A stretch of 64,000 nt of DNA, taken from the NCBI RefSeq assembly GCF_017348835.2, contig NZ_CP072312.1; one strand, written 5' to 3'. Made by a program: the position numbers. This document shows positions 24,001 to 30,000 of this stretch, in pieces (position 1 is the stretch's first letter; every line of letters begins with the position of its first letter). The DNA is from Escherichia coli (GTDB taxonomy: Bacteria; Pseudomonadota; Gammaproteobacteria; Enterobacterales; Enterobacteriaceae).

Positions 24001-27000
24001 TCAGACATAAGTTCATGATGGTATTGCCTGAATATTTTTGATGCCAGTTTTTTATCTATCCCCCCTCCATGAAATTCAGCTATTTTTCCTGTTTTACTGC
24101 TCTCATCTAACCTTATTGCTCTGAATAACTCATAAGGATACTTTTTCCTCATGTATTTATATAACTCCATGTTGTGTCCAAATGGAGCTATCCAGTCAAT
24201 AAACCACTTTCTTTCTCCCGACATCCAGTCTTTTGCATACAAAGATGTTACATCATTTATATATTTTACCTCACATTCCAGATCTAAACTGGCCCAGCTA
24301 CAAAAAGCTACAGGAAGCTCATCCTTTATTAAGAGAGCAAATTGATTTGTCTGAATAGCAGGTATGACATTAATAGCAAAAACAGATAATGGCCATTTTT
24401 TATGCAGAGGAGAACAGGCCCATAGCCATGCAACCTTCCCCATGACGTCAAAAGCATTAGATTTCATAATGTTTAAATAAATAAGAAAACTCAGTAAATG
24501 TAAAGAATCCTATATAAAAGAACAGAAATTATATCTTTTTAAGCAAGAAGCATCTAAAAACAAAAAGCTACCGCAAGGAGAATCTCTCCCAACCAAAACA
24601 ACATTAGCGATAATAATATATTGCCTAAACATTCTTACACATATCACAGCTAAGTTATATTATAACACTCAGATGATTGATTTGTAAGATAACGTATGAT
24701 TTTCATATGAATAGCCACGTGACAAATGCCTTATTAAAGAGATTGTAAACAGAATACAGCAAACTATTTCAGTTACCGAAATGACGAGTTAATCAGTTTT
24801 GTTTACCCTGCAAACACAAAATCTAAACCTACACAGAAAAGCAAACTGAACCGCCCCGGAAATCCTGGAGACTAAACTCCCTGAGAAAGAGGTAAACAGG
24901 ATGACTAAAAATACTCGTTTTTCCCCCGAAGTCCGTCAGCGGGCGATTCGTATGGTTCTGGAAAGTCAGGATGAATATGACTCACAGTGGGCGGCAATTT
25001 GTTCCATTGCCCCAAAGATTGGCTGTACGCCGGAGACTCTGCGTGTCTGGGTTCGCCAGCATGAGCGGGATACCGGGAGTGGTGATGGTGGACTCACCAC
25101 CGCTGAACGTCAGCGTCTGAAAGAGCTGGAACGTGAAAATCGTGAACTGCGCCGCAGTAACGATATCCTTCGCCAGGCTTCCGCTTATTTTGCGAAGGCG
25201 GAGTTCGACCGCCTCTGGAAAAAATAATGCCACTGCTGGATAAGCTGCGTGAGCAGTACGGGGTCGGACCGGTATGCAGCGAACTGCATATTGCCCCGTC
25301 AACGTATTACCATTGTCAGCAACAGCGACATCATCCGGATAAACGCAGTGCCCGTGCGCAGCACGATGACTGGCTGAAGAAAGAGATACAGCGCGTATAC
25401 GATGAAAATCACCAGGTATACGGTGTGCGTAAAGTCTGGCGTCAGTTGTTACGGGAAGGTATCAGAGTGGCCAGATGCACTGTGGCACGTCTCATGGCAG
25501 TTATGGGACTTGCCGGTGTTCTCCGGGGTAAAAAGGTCCGCACTACCGTCAGCCGGAAAGCCGTTGCCGCATGCGACCGCGTAAACCGTCAGTTCGTGGC
25601 AGAACGTCCAGACCAGTTGTGGGTGGCTGATTTTACCTGGGTAAGCACATGGCAGGGCTTCGTTTATGTGGCGTTCATCATTGATGTGTTCGCCGGATAC
25701 ATCGTGGGATGGCAGGTCTCATCATCCATGGAAACAACATTCGTGCTGGATGCACTGGAGCAGGCGTTGTGGGCCCGTCGGCCGTCCGGCACAATCCATC
25801 ACAGTGATAAAGGTTCTCAGTATGTATCGCTGGCCTACACGCAGCGGCTTAAGGAAGCCGGATTACTGGCATCAACAGGGAGTACTGGCGACTCGTATGA
25901 CAACGCGATGGCTGAGAGCATCAATGGTCTTTACAAAGCGGAGGTAATACACCGTAAGAGCTGGAAAAACCGTGCAGAAGTGGAACTGGCCACACTAACG
26001 TGGGTGGACTGGTATAACAATCGACGATTGCTGGAAAGGCTGGGCCATATTCCTCCGGCAGAAGCAGAAAAAGCTTATTATGCTTCCATCGGAAATAATG
26101 ATCTGGCAGCCTGAGTTCACAGATAAAACACTCTCCAGGAAACCCGGGGCGGTTCATATTGCAAAAAATAAATTTTCCAGTTTCGTCCCTGATACAGGCT
26201 GGATTTGGATAATCCTGAATAACTGCCGTCAGATTTTCCAGCAGATCTATTTGACGAGCATGTTTTTGTTGAATACGATCCATCGGATACATAGGAACCT
26301 CCTCACAAAGGATTCTATGGACAGTCGATGCAGGGAGTTCACGTCTCCCTGCATCGGCGATTTTCAATTTCAAATTTTAACGTGGCATTAACCACGTAAT
26401 TAATATACTAATTATCTTTCGTACTGTTACCTTTTTAAATCATAAAAACTCTGATATTTGAACGAAGTCAAATTTCTTTTATTCATCATCATTTTTTAGA
26501 AAAAATCGTTCCATCTCAGATGATACCTTCTCCCTGATATCTTCAACCATATTGGCATATTCAAACTTTGGATTTCCGGAGACATGAGGACTGAGAGACT
26601 CAATACCCAAAATTTTCGCTACTGATGATTGTGTTTTTACAACGCATTCAAGAAGCAATTTATTAAACTCAGTCTGATTAAATGCAGACTCTTTACGCTC
26701 CATCTGAGCCTCATGTACACGAAGCCCCAGTTCAAGAAGCATTGAAGCTGTTGCTGAAAAACTGACATCTTTTTCCCTTGCCCCTTCCTGTCGACGCTTC
26801 TCAATAATCGCATTTATTTTTTCATAGGCATCATTGCTGATATACAGGTTCACCTTAGCCATTAAAGATTACCTTTTTTGAACATAAAATAAAGTTAATT
26901 TAGAAACACTAAAATTCATAATGCAAACAGGGACGCACCGCTAGCAGTGCCCCTGGCGGTATCCTATAAAGAAACACACCGCGCCGCTAGCAGCACCCCT

Positions 27001-30000
27001 AATATAAAATAATGTTTTTTATAAAAATAGTCAGTACTACCCCTACAAAGCGGTGTCGGTGCGTTGTTGTAGCCGCGCCGACACCGCTTTTTTAAATATC
27101 ATAAAGAGAGTAAGAGAAACTAATTTTTCATAAAACTCTATTTATAAATAAAAATCAGCAAAAACTTGTTTTTGCGTGGGGTGTGGTGCTTTTGGTGGTG
27201 AGAACCACCAATCTGTTGAGCCTTTTTGTGGAGTGGGTTAAATTATTTACGGATAAAGTCACCAGAGGTGGAAAAATGAAAAAATGGATGTTAGCCATCT
27301 GCCTGATGTTTATAAATGAGATCTGCCATGCCACTGATTGCTTTGATCTTGCAGGCCGGGATTACAAAATAGATCCTGATTTACTGAGAGCAATATCATG
27401 GAAAGAATCCCGTTACCGGGTTAATGCCATCGGTATTAATCCGGTAACGGGATATGGCAGCGGACTGATGCAGGTAGATTCCCAGCATTTTAACGAACTG
27501 GCCCGCTATGGAATTAAGCCGGAACATCTGACAACAGATCCCTGCATGAACATTTATACCGGTGCTTATTATCTGGCAATAGCCTTTAAAAAATGGGGCG
27601 TCTCCTGGGAGGCCGTTGGTGCATACAATGCCGGATTCAGGAAGACCGAACACCAGAACCAGAGACGTCTTGCCTACGCATCAGATGTTTACCGGATTTA
27701 TACCGGGATAAAAAGCAGTAAAGGTATCCAGATTCCGGCCACGAAGAAATCACTTCCGGAAATTAACAGCGTGCAGAACAATTAATCTTACAGACATTGT
27801 CAGATACCGGTTATGCCGCAAAAGCGGCATGGAAGGCCACACACAAAAATATCATATGAGTGACAATACTGACTGGCCGAAGCCCCGCGAAGCGGGCAAT
27901 GCCGTTCACTTAAGCGGAGCGGTGCTGCGTTTCACCGGATAACGGGTTTTTGATATCTTAACTGCCCTCGGCCTTGATGGTCGGGGGCGTTTTGTTATGA
28001 ACACAACTTCCAGAGCACCCCGCAGATGCTCCAGTCGTTTCGGGATGGTCCCCGGTGATGCCGTATTTCCCAGCACTATCATTTCTGTCGCGATAAACTG
28101 GAACGCGAACTTAAAGCTGATTTCTGACGCCGCTTTTTTGTGTTTCTCAGCCGCTTTTGTTGCCTCACGCCGTATCAGGTTGTAAGCCAGCAACATGCCC
28201 CACACCTCCTGTTCCAGCAGCTCAACCTTACGGCTTCTCAGCACCAGGGCATTGTTCAGCAGGCTGCTTTTCAGGTTTCTGAACCCGACTTCGATTTCCC
28301 ATCGTGAATGGTAAAGTTCCGCTACCTCTTTTGCTTTGTAGCGGTCTGCCGGGAGTGATGTCTGCACCGTTTTCTCCACACCGTTCACCTCATAAGTCAC
28401 CGCCCGGGCGTACCAGAACTCTGGCAGTGCAGGATTCTTTTTCCTCGCCTGCAGCGACACCTTCAGTTTCAGAAGCCTGTCTCCGGGACCGTAACTTTCT
28501 TCTGTTTCTGCCGCGATATTCTTCCACGCAGGCAGTAGCCAGTGGCGGTTACAACCCTGCTGGTTCAGCGTCAGCAGCAGGTCTGCGCTGTAAAAGAGCT
28601 TGTCAAACAGCGTAATGGAGTTATCCGGGATAGTGGCGAGCATGGAGTGAGCCGGCACGGTTTCGCTCCGCCGGTAAGGCGCGGTCACGGCATTCAGCAA
28701 AATGTGGCTTCCCAGATTCATCAACGCCACCAGACGCATGACCGGGTAGGCGCTCTGCCGCTCAGTGGATGTGTTGGCAGAGCCATAATATTCACGCAAC
28801 TCAGGTTCATCAGGTGTCCTGAACGGTGCGCCATCAATGGCAAAAAGCTGCAGGCCGTGCCAGTCATCCTTCAGGTAACGTTCCGAGCCCCATGTCTGTG
28901 CGGTCTGGCGGAAGAGCCATTCCACCGGGGCGGCCCCCACGCGCTGACGCGCCTGGGTGACAGCGCTGCGGGCCAGCAGGTTCATCCCCGCTTCGCCATC
29001 CGCGCTCAGGTTCAGACGGCGAACCACATCGGTAATTGGCTCATTGCGGAAAAAGGCCATGGCCACCACCATCCAGATAACCATGTCCCCCGGTAAACGA
29101 CGGCGGCGAACGGTCGCATGCGCAGAAAGCGTCAGACAGTGCTGTATCCACTCGACGGGAAGGTGCTCTGCAAACAGTTGTGCAGAGGGCGGTGGCATAA
29201 GCGGATGGTCACTGAAATCGAGCAGATCATTGAGAAGTGGCATAAGAAAACGGCTCCCTGTTGTGGAAGCCGTTATAGTGCCGCAGTTTAAGGATCGGTC
29301 AACCGATCCTTAACTGATCGGCATTGCGCGAAGCGGGAACCCATCTTATATATAACCGGTAACTGCGCAGCCTCCTGCCAGACCATTTTTCGCGGGCACA
29401 ATATTTACAGACAACCGGAAAGCCAGTTGATGAAATTGAGGTATATCAGACGACACAGCGATGCCGAAGAATGATAATATAAGTAAAGCCCCGAAAATTT
29501 TTCGGGGCTTTACTTATATTATCATGACTTCCACTTTCTGAACTGTTCGGCAATCACCCATAACGCCTTGTTGATTCTTATATCACCATCAATACCTGTA
29601 ATGGCTCTTGTCCTGGTATTTTTCCCGGAGGCACTTCGCCCCGATAATCCACCTTTTATCATATTCTCCTGAGCCCGCTGCCAGGTTGTCCAGAGATCGT
29701 TCTGTTTATTCTCCCGACGACGGGGAGTAATTATCTGTTCAGGCGTCACTGGCGTTTTATTTTCATCTTCATACCTGACCATCAGTGCAGCTCTGCCAAA
29801 TAAATGTTGCTCGTCACTGTTAAGATGAATTTCTTTCATCGCCTCCATATTATCAGTGACCTTATCAAAGACACCGAGTACTTCATACGCTCCCTCGATA
29901 ACCTGCCCGACAATATCACCTTTATGTGGAACGCGGATTTCGCCAAAATTATTTCCGCACACCAGGCCATTTGTGCAGACAAAACGAAAAATTCCGGGGA

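Follow-up and report, generated by a model that had tools for sequence, protein, structure and literature searches.

The window analysed here covers 64 kb of a plasmid of ~80 kb, ~19 kb of which lies outside it, and contains the leading part of an F-type transfer region that ends abruptly at IS629, an IS3-family element. The complete IS629 copy adjoining traJ (24847–26156, + strand) is 1310 bp long and is bounded by inverted repeats, IRL at 24847–24871 and IRR at 26132–26156. It carries orfA (24901–25227, 108 aa) and orfB (25227–26114, 295 aa), both of which match IS3 transposase profiles, and an ALIL frameshift pseudoknot was detected at 25182–25298 (120 bits). Over its full 1310 bp, the copy shares 99.4% identity with an element annotated as IS629 in phage BP-4795 (AJ556162). 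Its length, its terminal repeats, the orfA/orfB pair with a programmed −1 frameshift and this near-identity to a named element identify it as IS629. The terminal inverted repeats begin with TGAACCGCCCCGG, a pattern with eight matches in the window against none expected, and three complete and two partial copies were found in the window. A search of full-text literature for the terminal repeat sequence matched only IS6110 papers; the IS629-type copies of pF2_18C_FIB have been named "IS1203 (IS629 variant)" (PMC6985150).

Simple IS629 insertions carry 3-bp target duplications, as seen for TCC in the window and for TAT and GTC in pO103. No such duplication was found at the copy next to traJ, which is flanked by AAC on the left and TAT on the right, and its left flank is the upstream region of ehxC. 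Because the duplication is missing and the partner flank differs between plasmids, this copy is a rearrangement junction and not a simple insertion. The missing duplication bears on the history of the copy, not on its identity.

Directly beyond the IRR lies a traJ remnant (26157–26292, − strand) that starts with an ATG at 26292 and comprises 136 nt, that is, 45 codons plus 1 nt. The remnant has no mismatches to traJ of pPE164, and its product is 100% identical to residues 1–45 of F TraJ (tblastn, E = 4.7e-27). A preliminary description of this DNA had placed the end of traJ after codon 45, in agreement with the 136 nt retained down to 26157. It had also called the gene decapitated, which reverses the damage: the promoter, the leader, the FinP target and codons 1–45 survive, and it is the 3′ part that was lost. 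Full-length TraJ has 229 aa, and the missing 184 codons encode most of the PAS domain and the DNA-binding domain. With residues 1–45 only, the product lacks the architecture of a TraJ activator (~229 aa, with PAS dimerisation at the N-terminus and DNA binding at the C-terminus). The traJ frame continues into IS629, generating a 123-aa hybrid ORF.

The gene for the antisense RNA FinP, of the F allele, lies at 26286–26364 (+ strand) and overlaps the traJ ATG region. It scored 97.3 bits against Rfam RF00107 (gathering score 45, E = 1.7e-18) and is identical to FinP of F at 79 of 79 nt. Consistent with this assignment, it is predicted to fold into two stem-loops, the second terminator-like (−37.6 kcal/mol, z = −6.5), antisense to the traJ leader and ribosome-binding site. 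A promoter-like site 5′ of FinP (26251–26279, + strand; TTGACG-17-TACGAT, a consensus match only) sits within traJ codons 5–14 and is kept in the remnant. The traJ 5′ untranslated leader, the target of FinP, occupies 26293–26397 (− strand), with the Rfam RF00243 match spanning 26287–26397 (− strand; 124.8 bits, gathering score 50), and a promoter scan placed a PJ promoter-like site at 26411–26439.

Intact traM (26479–26862, − strand) encodes 127 aa that match NCBIfam NF010267 over positions 1–127 of 127 (227.7 bits) and differ from F TraM at two residues (S98P and P122L; 98.4% identity). Next to it, alignment to F delimited an F-type oriT (26863–27275, + strand). Position 27275, at which the preliminary description ended, is the base preceding the orf169 ATG at 27276. 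The TraI recognition sequence of F, TTTGCGTGGGGTGT/GGTGCTTT, is present at 27171–27192, and the predicted nick falls after 27184 on the + strand. An inverted repeat (~27044–27092) and the TraM-site repeats (~26930–27000) are also present. The spacer between traM and gene X is identical to that of F at 310 of 320 nt, and the surroundings of the nick are identical over at least 60 nt. Among the ten substitutions, three fall in the TraM-site repeats (26948, 26955 and 26971) and two within 50 nt of the nick (27134 and 27149). The nick sequence between traM and gene X, together with the flanking repeats, assigns this oriT by sequence to the F type (MOBF, IncF).

Decay of the distal genes and loss of the transfer block

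The distal tra genes are preserved to differing degrees. Intact finO (49104–49664, − strand) encodes 186 aa with a full-length match to NCBIfam NF010317 (359 bits, positions 1–186 of 186), placing the product in the ProQ/FinO family, and traX (50686–51432, − strand) is intact as well. A 1-bp deletion at 51984 in traI (51452–56721, − strand) shifts the frame at codon 1580 and cuts the ORF short at 1604 aa (full length 1756 aa), leaving the relaxase domain intact, with Y16/Y17 and the specificity residues Q193/R201. This deletion was absent from all site-matching records (3504 in PLSDB and 2953 from complete genomes) and may be a sequencing error. In traD (56721–58796, − strand), an in-frame 78-bp deletion between short direct repeats (~57769–57784) removes 26 aa (aa 340–365), and its junction is common to at least 11 other EHEC plasmids at 100% identity. 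Thus traI and traD persist, as the preliminary description had it, but neither is undamaged. Further along, traT is intact (59049–59780, − strand), and the gene in the traS position (59812–60315, − strand) is a non-F allele with a close homologue annotated as a surface exclusion protein. traG is a pseudogene (60342–63151, − strand) with a frameshift near 62564–62636, and PGAP labels it "frameshifted" in relatives. The traH remnant (63151–64000, − strand; codons ~160–457) lacks the first ~160 codons, runs off the window end and adjoins another IS629 just past it. The distal genes traG, traD and traI are eroding.

When all F Tra proteins were used as tblastn queries, neither the window nor the nearest relative, a complete plasmid of 82,910 bp, gave a match for any of the 25 genes from TraY to TrbF, and TraJ 46–229 was unmatched in the window and in two complete relatives. 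Likewise, the block is missing from the complete relatives of 82.9 and 75.5 kb. The earlier claim that a traY-to-traF block is absent therefore holds as to absence but understates the extent, as the loss runs from traJ codon 46 to approximately traH codon 160. An intact traJ and traY–traF block elsewhere on the replicon, which would have contradicted that description, was not found in the 64-kb window or in the two complete relatives.

With 25 genes unmatched, traH truncated and traG frameshifted, the gene content is not that of a self-transmissible MPF-F plasmid. In agreement with the preliminary description, which had pointed to the missing pilus and T4SS block, a plasmid lacking the TraJ activator, the PY promoter, pilin and a T4SS cannot transfer itself. 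The "conjugative" label given to relatives by MOB-suite is a false positive, because their pilus and T4SS genes are absent or broken. By contrast, profile matches and alignment to F show an intact structure for oriT (cis-acting, F allele), traM, the promoter and leader of traJ, the gene for FinP, and finO, and here the earlier account of an oriT with its nic context, traM, FinP and an uninterrupted finO is borne out.

Twenty complete E. coli genomes, pO103 included, and 21 PLSDB plasmids contain an identical 70-nt IS629/traJ junction; the truncation is already annotated in about 20 public plasmids, RefSeq labelling it "TraJ, incomplete, missing C-terminus". Its hosts are labelled O103:H2, O45:H2 and O121, with an ST302 aEPEC in addition (also PMC6985150). 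Sharing of one junction points to a single ancestral event, and its presence in differing serotypes and STs indicates horizontal movement after traJ was truncated. Relatives also carry independent lesions: a traD frameshift and an IS629 in pO103, and in NZ_CP148351 a finO broken by IS629 and a different traI frameshift. The traD 78-bp deletion is found in pO45-1 and in the window. Because these lesions are independent, they suggest that decay is ongoing in this plasmid family.

Proposed origin and alternative explanations

Collectively, we consider it very probable that the window belongs to a pO103-like EHEC/aEPEC plasmid with an F-type (ColBM-kind) backbone that lost its tra genes through IS629, a decayed conjugative plasmid that cannot transfer itself, retains intact cis regulatory parts and depends on a helper. 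In the proposed sequence of events, IS629 would have entered traJ between nt 136 and 137, and IS629-mediated deletion and recombination among IS629 copies would then have stripped the region from traJ codon 46 to approximately traH codon 160. In F, the lost span measures ~17 kb and takes in the remainder of traJ, all genes from traY to trbF, and the start of traH. These rearrangements would also have brought the virulence cargo (ehx, ecf, stcE/etp and katP) to its place between the tra remnants. When flanks were paired across copies, one recombination event between directly repeated IS629 copies was rejected as the explanation, because both tra remnants adjoin an IRR end and no copy has the partner flank of traJ. 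The exact order of events cannot be recovered from the IS629 flanks. The surviving regulatory parts would most simply be a young relic, still undegraded, and not a selected function.

Mobilisation by a helper is plausible. The oriT of the plasmid could be nicked and exported, but only if an F-allele relaxosome (TraI Q193/R201, TraY and TraM), a coupling protein and a pilus come in trans. The preliminary description had supposed that a helper supplying the pilus would suffice. With no TraY encoded, TraD damaged and TraI perhaps impaired as well, a helper would need to bring TraY and probably TraD besides the pilus. Within the tra regulatory cascade (PMC7690428), resident FinP and FinO would still be able to repress the traJ gene on any F-allele plasmid in the same cell; this repression, exclusion by TraT/TraS and IncF (IncFIB/FII) incompatibility would keep mobilisation rare. 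No mobilisation experiment was found in the literature on pO103-like plasmids. One may further propose that the family, after losing its transfer genes, crossed unrelated E. coli lineages (ST17 O103/O45, O121 and ST302 aEPEC) by oriT-dependent mobilisation with F-allele ColBM-type helpers such as p99_1145-5, which share these hosts, and that oriT–traM and, in most members, traI were selected for hitch-hiking; we regard this as rather unlikely.

An alternative that we hold possible, if doubtful, is that the remnant is inert and the plasmid effectively non-mobilisable through oriT, having spread instead by cointegration with conjugative plasmids (conduction), mediated by its numerous IS copies, or in some other way. 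The absence of TraY, the damage to TraD, TraI and TraG, the opposition that resident FinOP, TraT/TraS and the IncF replicons offer to an F-type helper, and the ten oriT substitutions all favour such inertness. In addition, the 246.7-kb plasmid pD2-tet(X4) carries the segment stcE–IS629–traJ′–traM, indicating that fusions with other plasmid DNA do form, and horizontal spread could thus have proceeded by cointegration and not through oriT. Against inertness stand the identity to F at and around the nick, the presence of every named oriT landmark, the established sufficiency of oriT in cis for mobilisation by F, and the natural occurrence of F-allele conjugative plasmids in EHEC hosts.

It is improbable that FinP, FinO, the traJ leader and TraT/TraS were selected as a brake in trans, or barrier, against incoming F-type conjugative plasmids. 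Such selection would fit the full-length finO, the perfect match of FinP to F and the conservation of the module in ~20 plasmids. We rejected the FinP identity as a sign of selection, however, as no change in 79 nt is expected anyway at 1–3% divergence, and the broken finO of one close relative came with no sign of plasmid loss. Classical fertility inhibition is, moreover, a by-product of self-regulation. A junction produced by misassembly, with collapsed IS629 repeats dropping the tra block, is conceivable given the number of IS629 copies in the window and the IS629-bounded rearrangements among relatives, but highly improbable: 20 complete genomes that were assembled independently, among them pO103 and pF2_18C_FIB (a hybrid assembly; PMC6985150), show the identical junction and lack the same block. 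A simple IS629 insertion into traJ, with the remaining traJ codons and the tra operon located beyond the IS or elsewhere on the replicon and transfer restorable by excision, has precedent in insertions with intact target duplications in this plasmid family, but the ehxC-derived flank, the absent duplication and the unmatched TraJ 46–229 and TraY through TrbF in the window and two complete relatives refute it for the 64 kb seen and leave it next to no probability overall.

The truncated traJ and the missing pilus genes explain why this EHEC virulence plasmid family cannot self-transfer. A compatible helper could move such plasmids, since the family keeps an F-identical nick site in an F-type oriT, unlike classical pO157, and such possible transfer matters for how genes for hemolysin, StcE and the T2SS pass between serotypes of Shiga-toxin E. 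coli. A practical lesson is that automated typing by MOB-suite calls these plasmids "conjugative", wrongly.

Comparison with known systems

These features are not novel in kind: public sequences have contained the junction since pO103, it carries a TraJ pseudogene annotation, and decayed conjugative plasmids have been described as a class before. pO103 itself (NC_013354, E. coli O103:H2 12009), pF2_18C_FIB, pO45-1 and the "FIB13" EHEC plasmids have the same traJ junction after codon 45, the same traM–oriT, the same distal genes (finO–uilS–traX–traI–traD–traT–traS–frameshifted traG–′traH remnant) and the same virulence cargo, at 99.4–100% identity. They differ in the order and orientation of IS629-bounded segments, with ehxC–IS629–traJ′ in the window and stcE–IS629–traJ′ in pO103. 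The window combines the ehxC junction of the pF2_18C_FIB type, the traD 78-bp deletion of the pO45-1 group and a private traI frameshift.

The F plasmid shares with the window the nick site, FinP, the traJ leader, the first 45 TraJ residues and TraI Q193/R201. The states of the two regulators are opposite: traJ is truncated and finO intact in the window, whereas F has an intact traJ and a finO broken by IS3 (PMC7690428). F also has the PY operon, which the window has lost entirely up to traH.

Decayed conjugative plasmids of the pdCONJ class are defined by at least two MPF genes, an incomplete MPF, a conjugative origin and a conjugative-type oriT (Ares-Arroyo et al., PMC10123127). Like them, the plasmid is large, deletion-derived and helper-dependent, with a relaxase, a coupling protein, some MPF genes and a pCONJ-like oriT. 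The traG and traH remnants, traD, traI and the F oriT place it in this class, with the caveat that both MPF genes are pseudogenes, which sets it apart from other pdCONJ plasmids and towards the pMOB/pOriT end of the spectrum.

pO157 of O157:H7 is likewise a non-conjugative F-like plasmid with ehx/etp/stcE/katP/ecf cargo and many IS629 copies (PMC10758439, PMC6985150). pO157-like plasmids were reported to lack a recognisable oriT and classed as non-transmissible (PMC10123127), whereas the family described here keeps oriT, traM and a relaxase.

Finally, the conjugative ColB/ColM F-type plasmid p99_1145-5 (O111:H8) has the same hha–nuclease–ANR–finO–uilS–traX–traI–traD–traT–traS module at 98.9% identity, its hha–finO–uilS–traX module being like that of the window through to traH, with an F-type TraI, and shares the F-type nick site and cmi. 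Unlike the window, it retains a complete traM–traJ–traY…traH region. p99_1145-5 thus probably shows what the ancestor looked like, and it may act as a helper in nature.

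IS629 ends traJ beside an intact F-type oriT region

A complete 1310-bp IS629 occupies positions 24847–26156, with terminal inverted repeats, orfA and orfB, and the ALIL frameshift pseudoknot. It is 99.4% identical to the IS629 annotated in phage BP-4795, and the terminal-inverted-repeat pattern was matched eight times in the window against 0 expected. Directly to its right, starting at 26292 on the minus strand, lies a traJ remnant of 136 nt (45 codons and one base), which matched an intact traJ without a mismatch and is 100% identical to residues 1–45 of TraJ from the F plasmid (F). 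The remnant remains open into IS629, generating a 123-aa hybrid ORF. These results confirm the preliminary description, which had IS629 cutting traJ after codon 45 within exact limits: 24847 is the first base of IS629 and 27275 the base preceding the orf169 ATG. In RefSeq, the traJ remnant at this junction is annotated as a TraJ without its C-terminus and adjoins an IS3-family transposase, and traG and the 5'-truncated traH are marked as pseudogenes; the IS629-cut traJ is thus already known.

As had also been described, oriT, traM, FinP and finO are kept. FinP (26286–26364, plus strand) scored 97.3 bits against an Rfam gathering score of 45, and the traJ leader (26287–26397, minus strand) scored 124.8 bits. 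FinP is identical to that of F (79/79 nt), its predicted fold contains the expected two stem-loops (z = −6.5), and a promoter-like site lies at 26251–26279. The full-length traM (26479–26862) differs from that of F by two residues. The oriT spacer matches F at 310 of 320 nt, with zero differences in 27150–27211 around the TraI recognition sequence TTTGCGTGGGGTGT/GGTGCTTT (27171–27192). Distally, finO (49104–49664), traX and traT are intact. Between traX and finO, a gene for a UilS-family quorum-quenching N-acyl-homoserine lactonase was found (49767–50627), likewise in the intact ColBM-type plasmid p99_1145-5. Rfam also matched three plasmid antisense RNAs: AS-pc02 (48678–48862, 210 bits), AS-traI (53796–53872, 105.9 bits) and AS-traG (62348–62433, 62.1 bits).

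Missing and damaged transfer genes

We searched the window and the complete nearest record with 35 F proteins by tblastn. No match was found in either for TraY, TraA, TraL, TraE, TraK, TraB, TraP, TrbD, TrbG, TraV, TraR, TraC, TrbI, TraW, TraU, TrbC, TraN, TrbE, TraF, TrbA, ArtA, TraQ, TrbB, TrbJ or TrbF, and the RefSeq annotation of pO103 displays the same gap. The absence of the traY–traF block therefore stands, but the loss is wider and reaches traH codon ~160: only codons ~160–457 of traH remain, with another IS629 adjoining just past the window end, and traG is frameshifted.

Both traI and traD are present, as the preliminary description stated, but both carry lesions. An in-frame 78-bp deletion in traD (56721–58796; junction ~57769–57784), flanked by short direct repeats (CACGGATGG), removes residues 340–365 in the ATPase region, between Walker A and the DELP motif. 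The identical deletion occurs in at least 11 other EHEC plasmids, for example pO45-1, and the annotation there treats the gene as a normal TraD CDS. In traI, a 1-bp deletion at 51984 (CTTTCT-CG versus CTTTCTCCG) shifts the frame from codon 1580, shortening the protein from 1756 to 1604 aa. None of ~6,400 matching public records contains this deletion, which leaves a private mutation and a sequencing error as the two explanations. The relaxase domain is intact, with the F-specificity residues Q193 and R201.

A rearranged F-derived virulence plasmid

The region is a piece of an F-derived EHEC/aEPEC virulence plasmid, whose family includes pO103 (O103:H2 strain 12009) and the "FIB13" plasmids (PMC6985150); within it, the hemolysin operon ehxCABD runs up to position 24467. 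The closest complete record, pF2_18C_FIB (NZ_CP043544, 82,910 bp) from a pig ST302 aEPEC, aligns to the window at 99.5–99.98% identity, but the alignment is broken into six blocks, the majority with IS629 copies at their borders. Relative to NZ_CP043544.1, window positions 1–16400 are rearranged by IS629-bounded inversions and transpositions; for example, the stcE-gspC-etpD segment lies in inverted orientation beside the ecf/lpxM cluster. MOB-suite typing in PLSDB labels both NZ_CP043544.1 and pO103 (NC_013354.1) "conjugative, MPF_F"; with 25 transfer genes missing and traG and traH pseudogenes, this label is a systematic false positive for the pO103-like family.

Simple IS629 insertions carry 3-bp duplications (TCC at 14174–15483 in the window; TAT and GTC in pO103). 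No such duplication surrounds the traJ copy, whose flanks are AAC and TAT. The outer flank of this copy is the ehxC upstream region in the window and pF2_18C_FIB; in pO103, the IS629 at the traJ remnant has stcE on its other side, and the ehxC flank leads to the truncated traH. The missing duplication and the varying flank indicate that, after the original insertion, IS629 copies recombined with each other, which deleted the pilus block and shuffled cargo segments. Most regions of these plasmids are flanked by IS elements (PMC6985150). A lone deletion event between directly repeated copies cannot explain this structure, as both tra remnants are oriented toward the IRR end of the adjoining IS629.

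Further insertions were observed. At 13765–16387, the complete IS629 at 14174–15483 lies inside an oppositely oriented IS629 (split into 13765–14173 and 15479–16387). In the leading region, a ~1.43-kb element (~27893–29327) with an intact 445-aa IS4-family transposase separates gene X from a frameshifted DUF932 gene (29522–30420). The F sequence overlaps by ~8 bp at its insertion site, suggesting a target duplication, and the pO103 copy contains an internal stop.

p99_1145-5, a ColB/ColM F-type plasmid from an O111:H8 strain, shares the distal module at 98.9% identity; its nick site is that of F and its TraI is F-type. Unlike the window, it retains a complete traM-to-traH region, and it preserves an ancestor-like state. 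The colicin M immunity gene cmi is retained in the window (16558–16938); in pO103, it adjoins a colicin M pseudogene fragment beside ehxD. Together with the common distal module, these features suggest that the EHEC plasmid backbone derived from a ColBM-type F plasmid.

Transfer and spread

The absence of TraJ, the tra operon promoter PY, pilin and T4SS genes shows that the plasmid is incapable of self-transfer, as proposed (the F regulatory cascade is reviewed in PMC7690428). Its intact F-allele oriT could still be acted on in trans, in which case the plasmid would count among the decayed conjugative plasmids defined in PMC10123127. A helper would have to belong to the F allele group. Besides TraY, it would need to provide a complete T4SS, and for the window sequence probably TraD as well and perhaps a full-length TraI. 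Any mobilisation is expected to be infrequent, because resident FinP (F allele) and FinO should repress traJ of an F-allele helper, and TraT/TraS exclusion and the IncFIB/FII replicons would add barriers. The facts of the preliminary description were right and its interpretation partly supported; its wording, extent of loss, traI/traD state and helper requirements need correction.

NZ_CP148351 carries an IS629 interrupting finO and a traI frameshift different from that of the window, and pO103 has a traD frameshift and an IS629 between traT and traD. With the traD deletion of pO45-1, these independent lesions argue for neutral decay of the distal genes and finO.

Among 5,426 complete E. coli genomes, 20 contain the identical 70-nt junction, as do 21 plasmids in PLSDB. 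The hosts of this junction, labelled O103:H2, O45:H2 and O121, plus one ST302 aEPEC (cf. PMC6985150), imply horizontal movement postdating the traJ truncation. Besides mobilisation through oriT, cointegration is pointed to as an alternative route by a stcE–IS629–traJ remnant–traM segment within a 246.7-kb tet(X4) plasmid. This plasmid, pD2-tet(X4) (NZ_JBXSPU010000002.1; hospital sewage, China), carries at 214258–238327 a segment running from etp through stcE, IS629, the traJ remnant and traM to the leading region, and has the appearance of a cointegrate in which EHEC-type virulence determinants are combined with those for last-line resistance.

Comparison with other EHEC plasmids

A finO-traXIDTSG remnant has already been described for pO145 (PMC3893438), and we found no mobilisation experiments on the pO103-like family in the searchable literature. 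The sole useful distinction lies in oriT, which is reported as absent from classical pO157-type plasmids (PMC10123127), whereas the pO103-like family keeps a perfect one.
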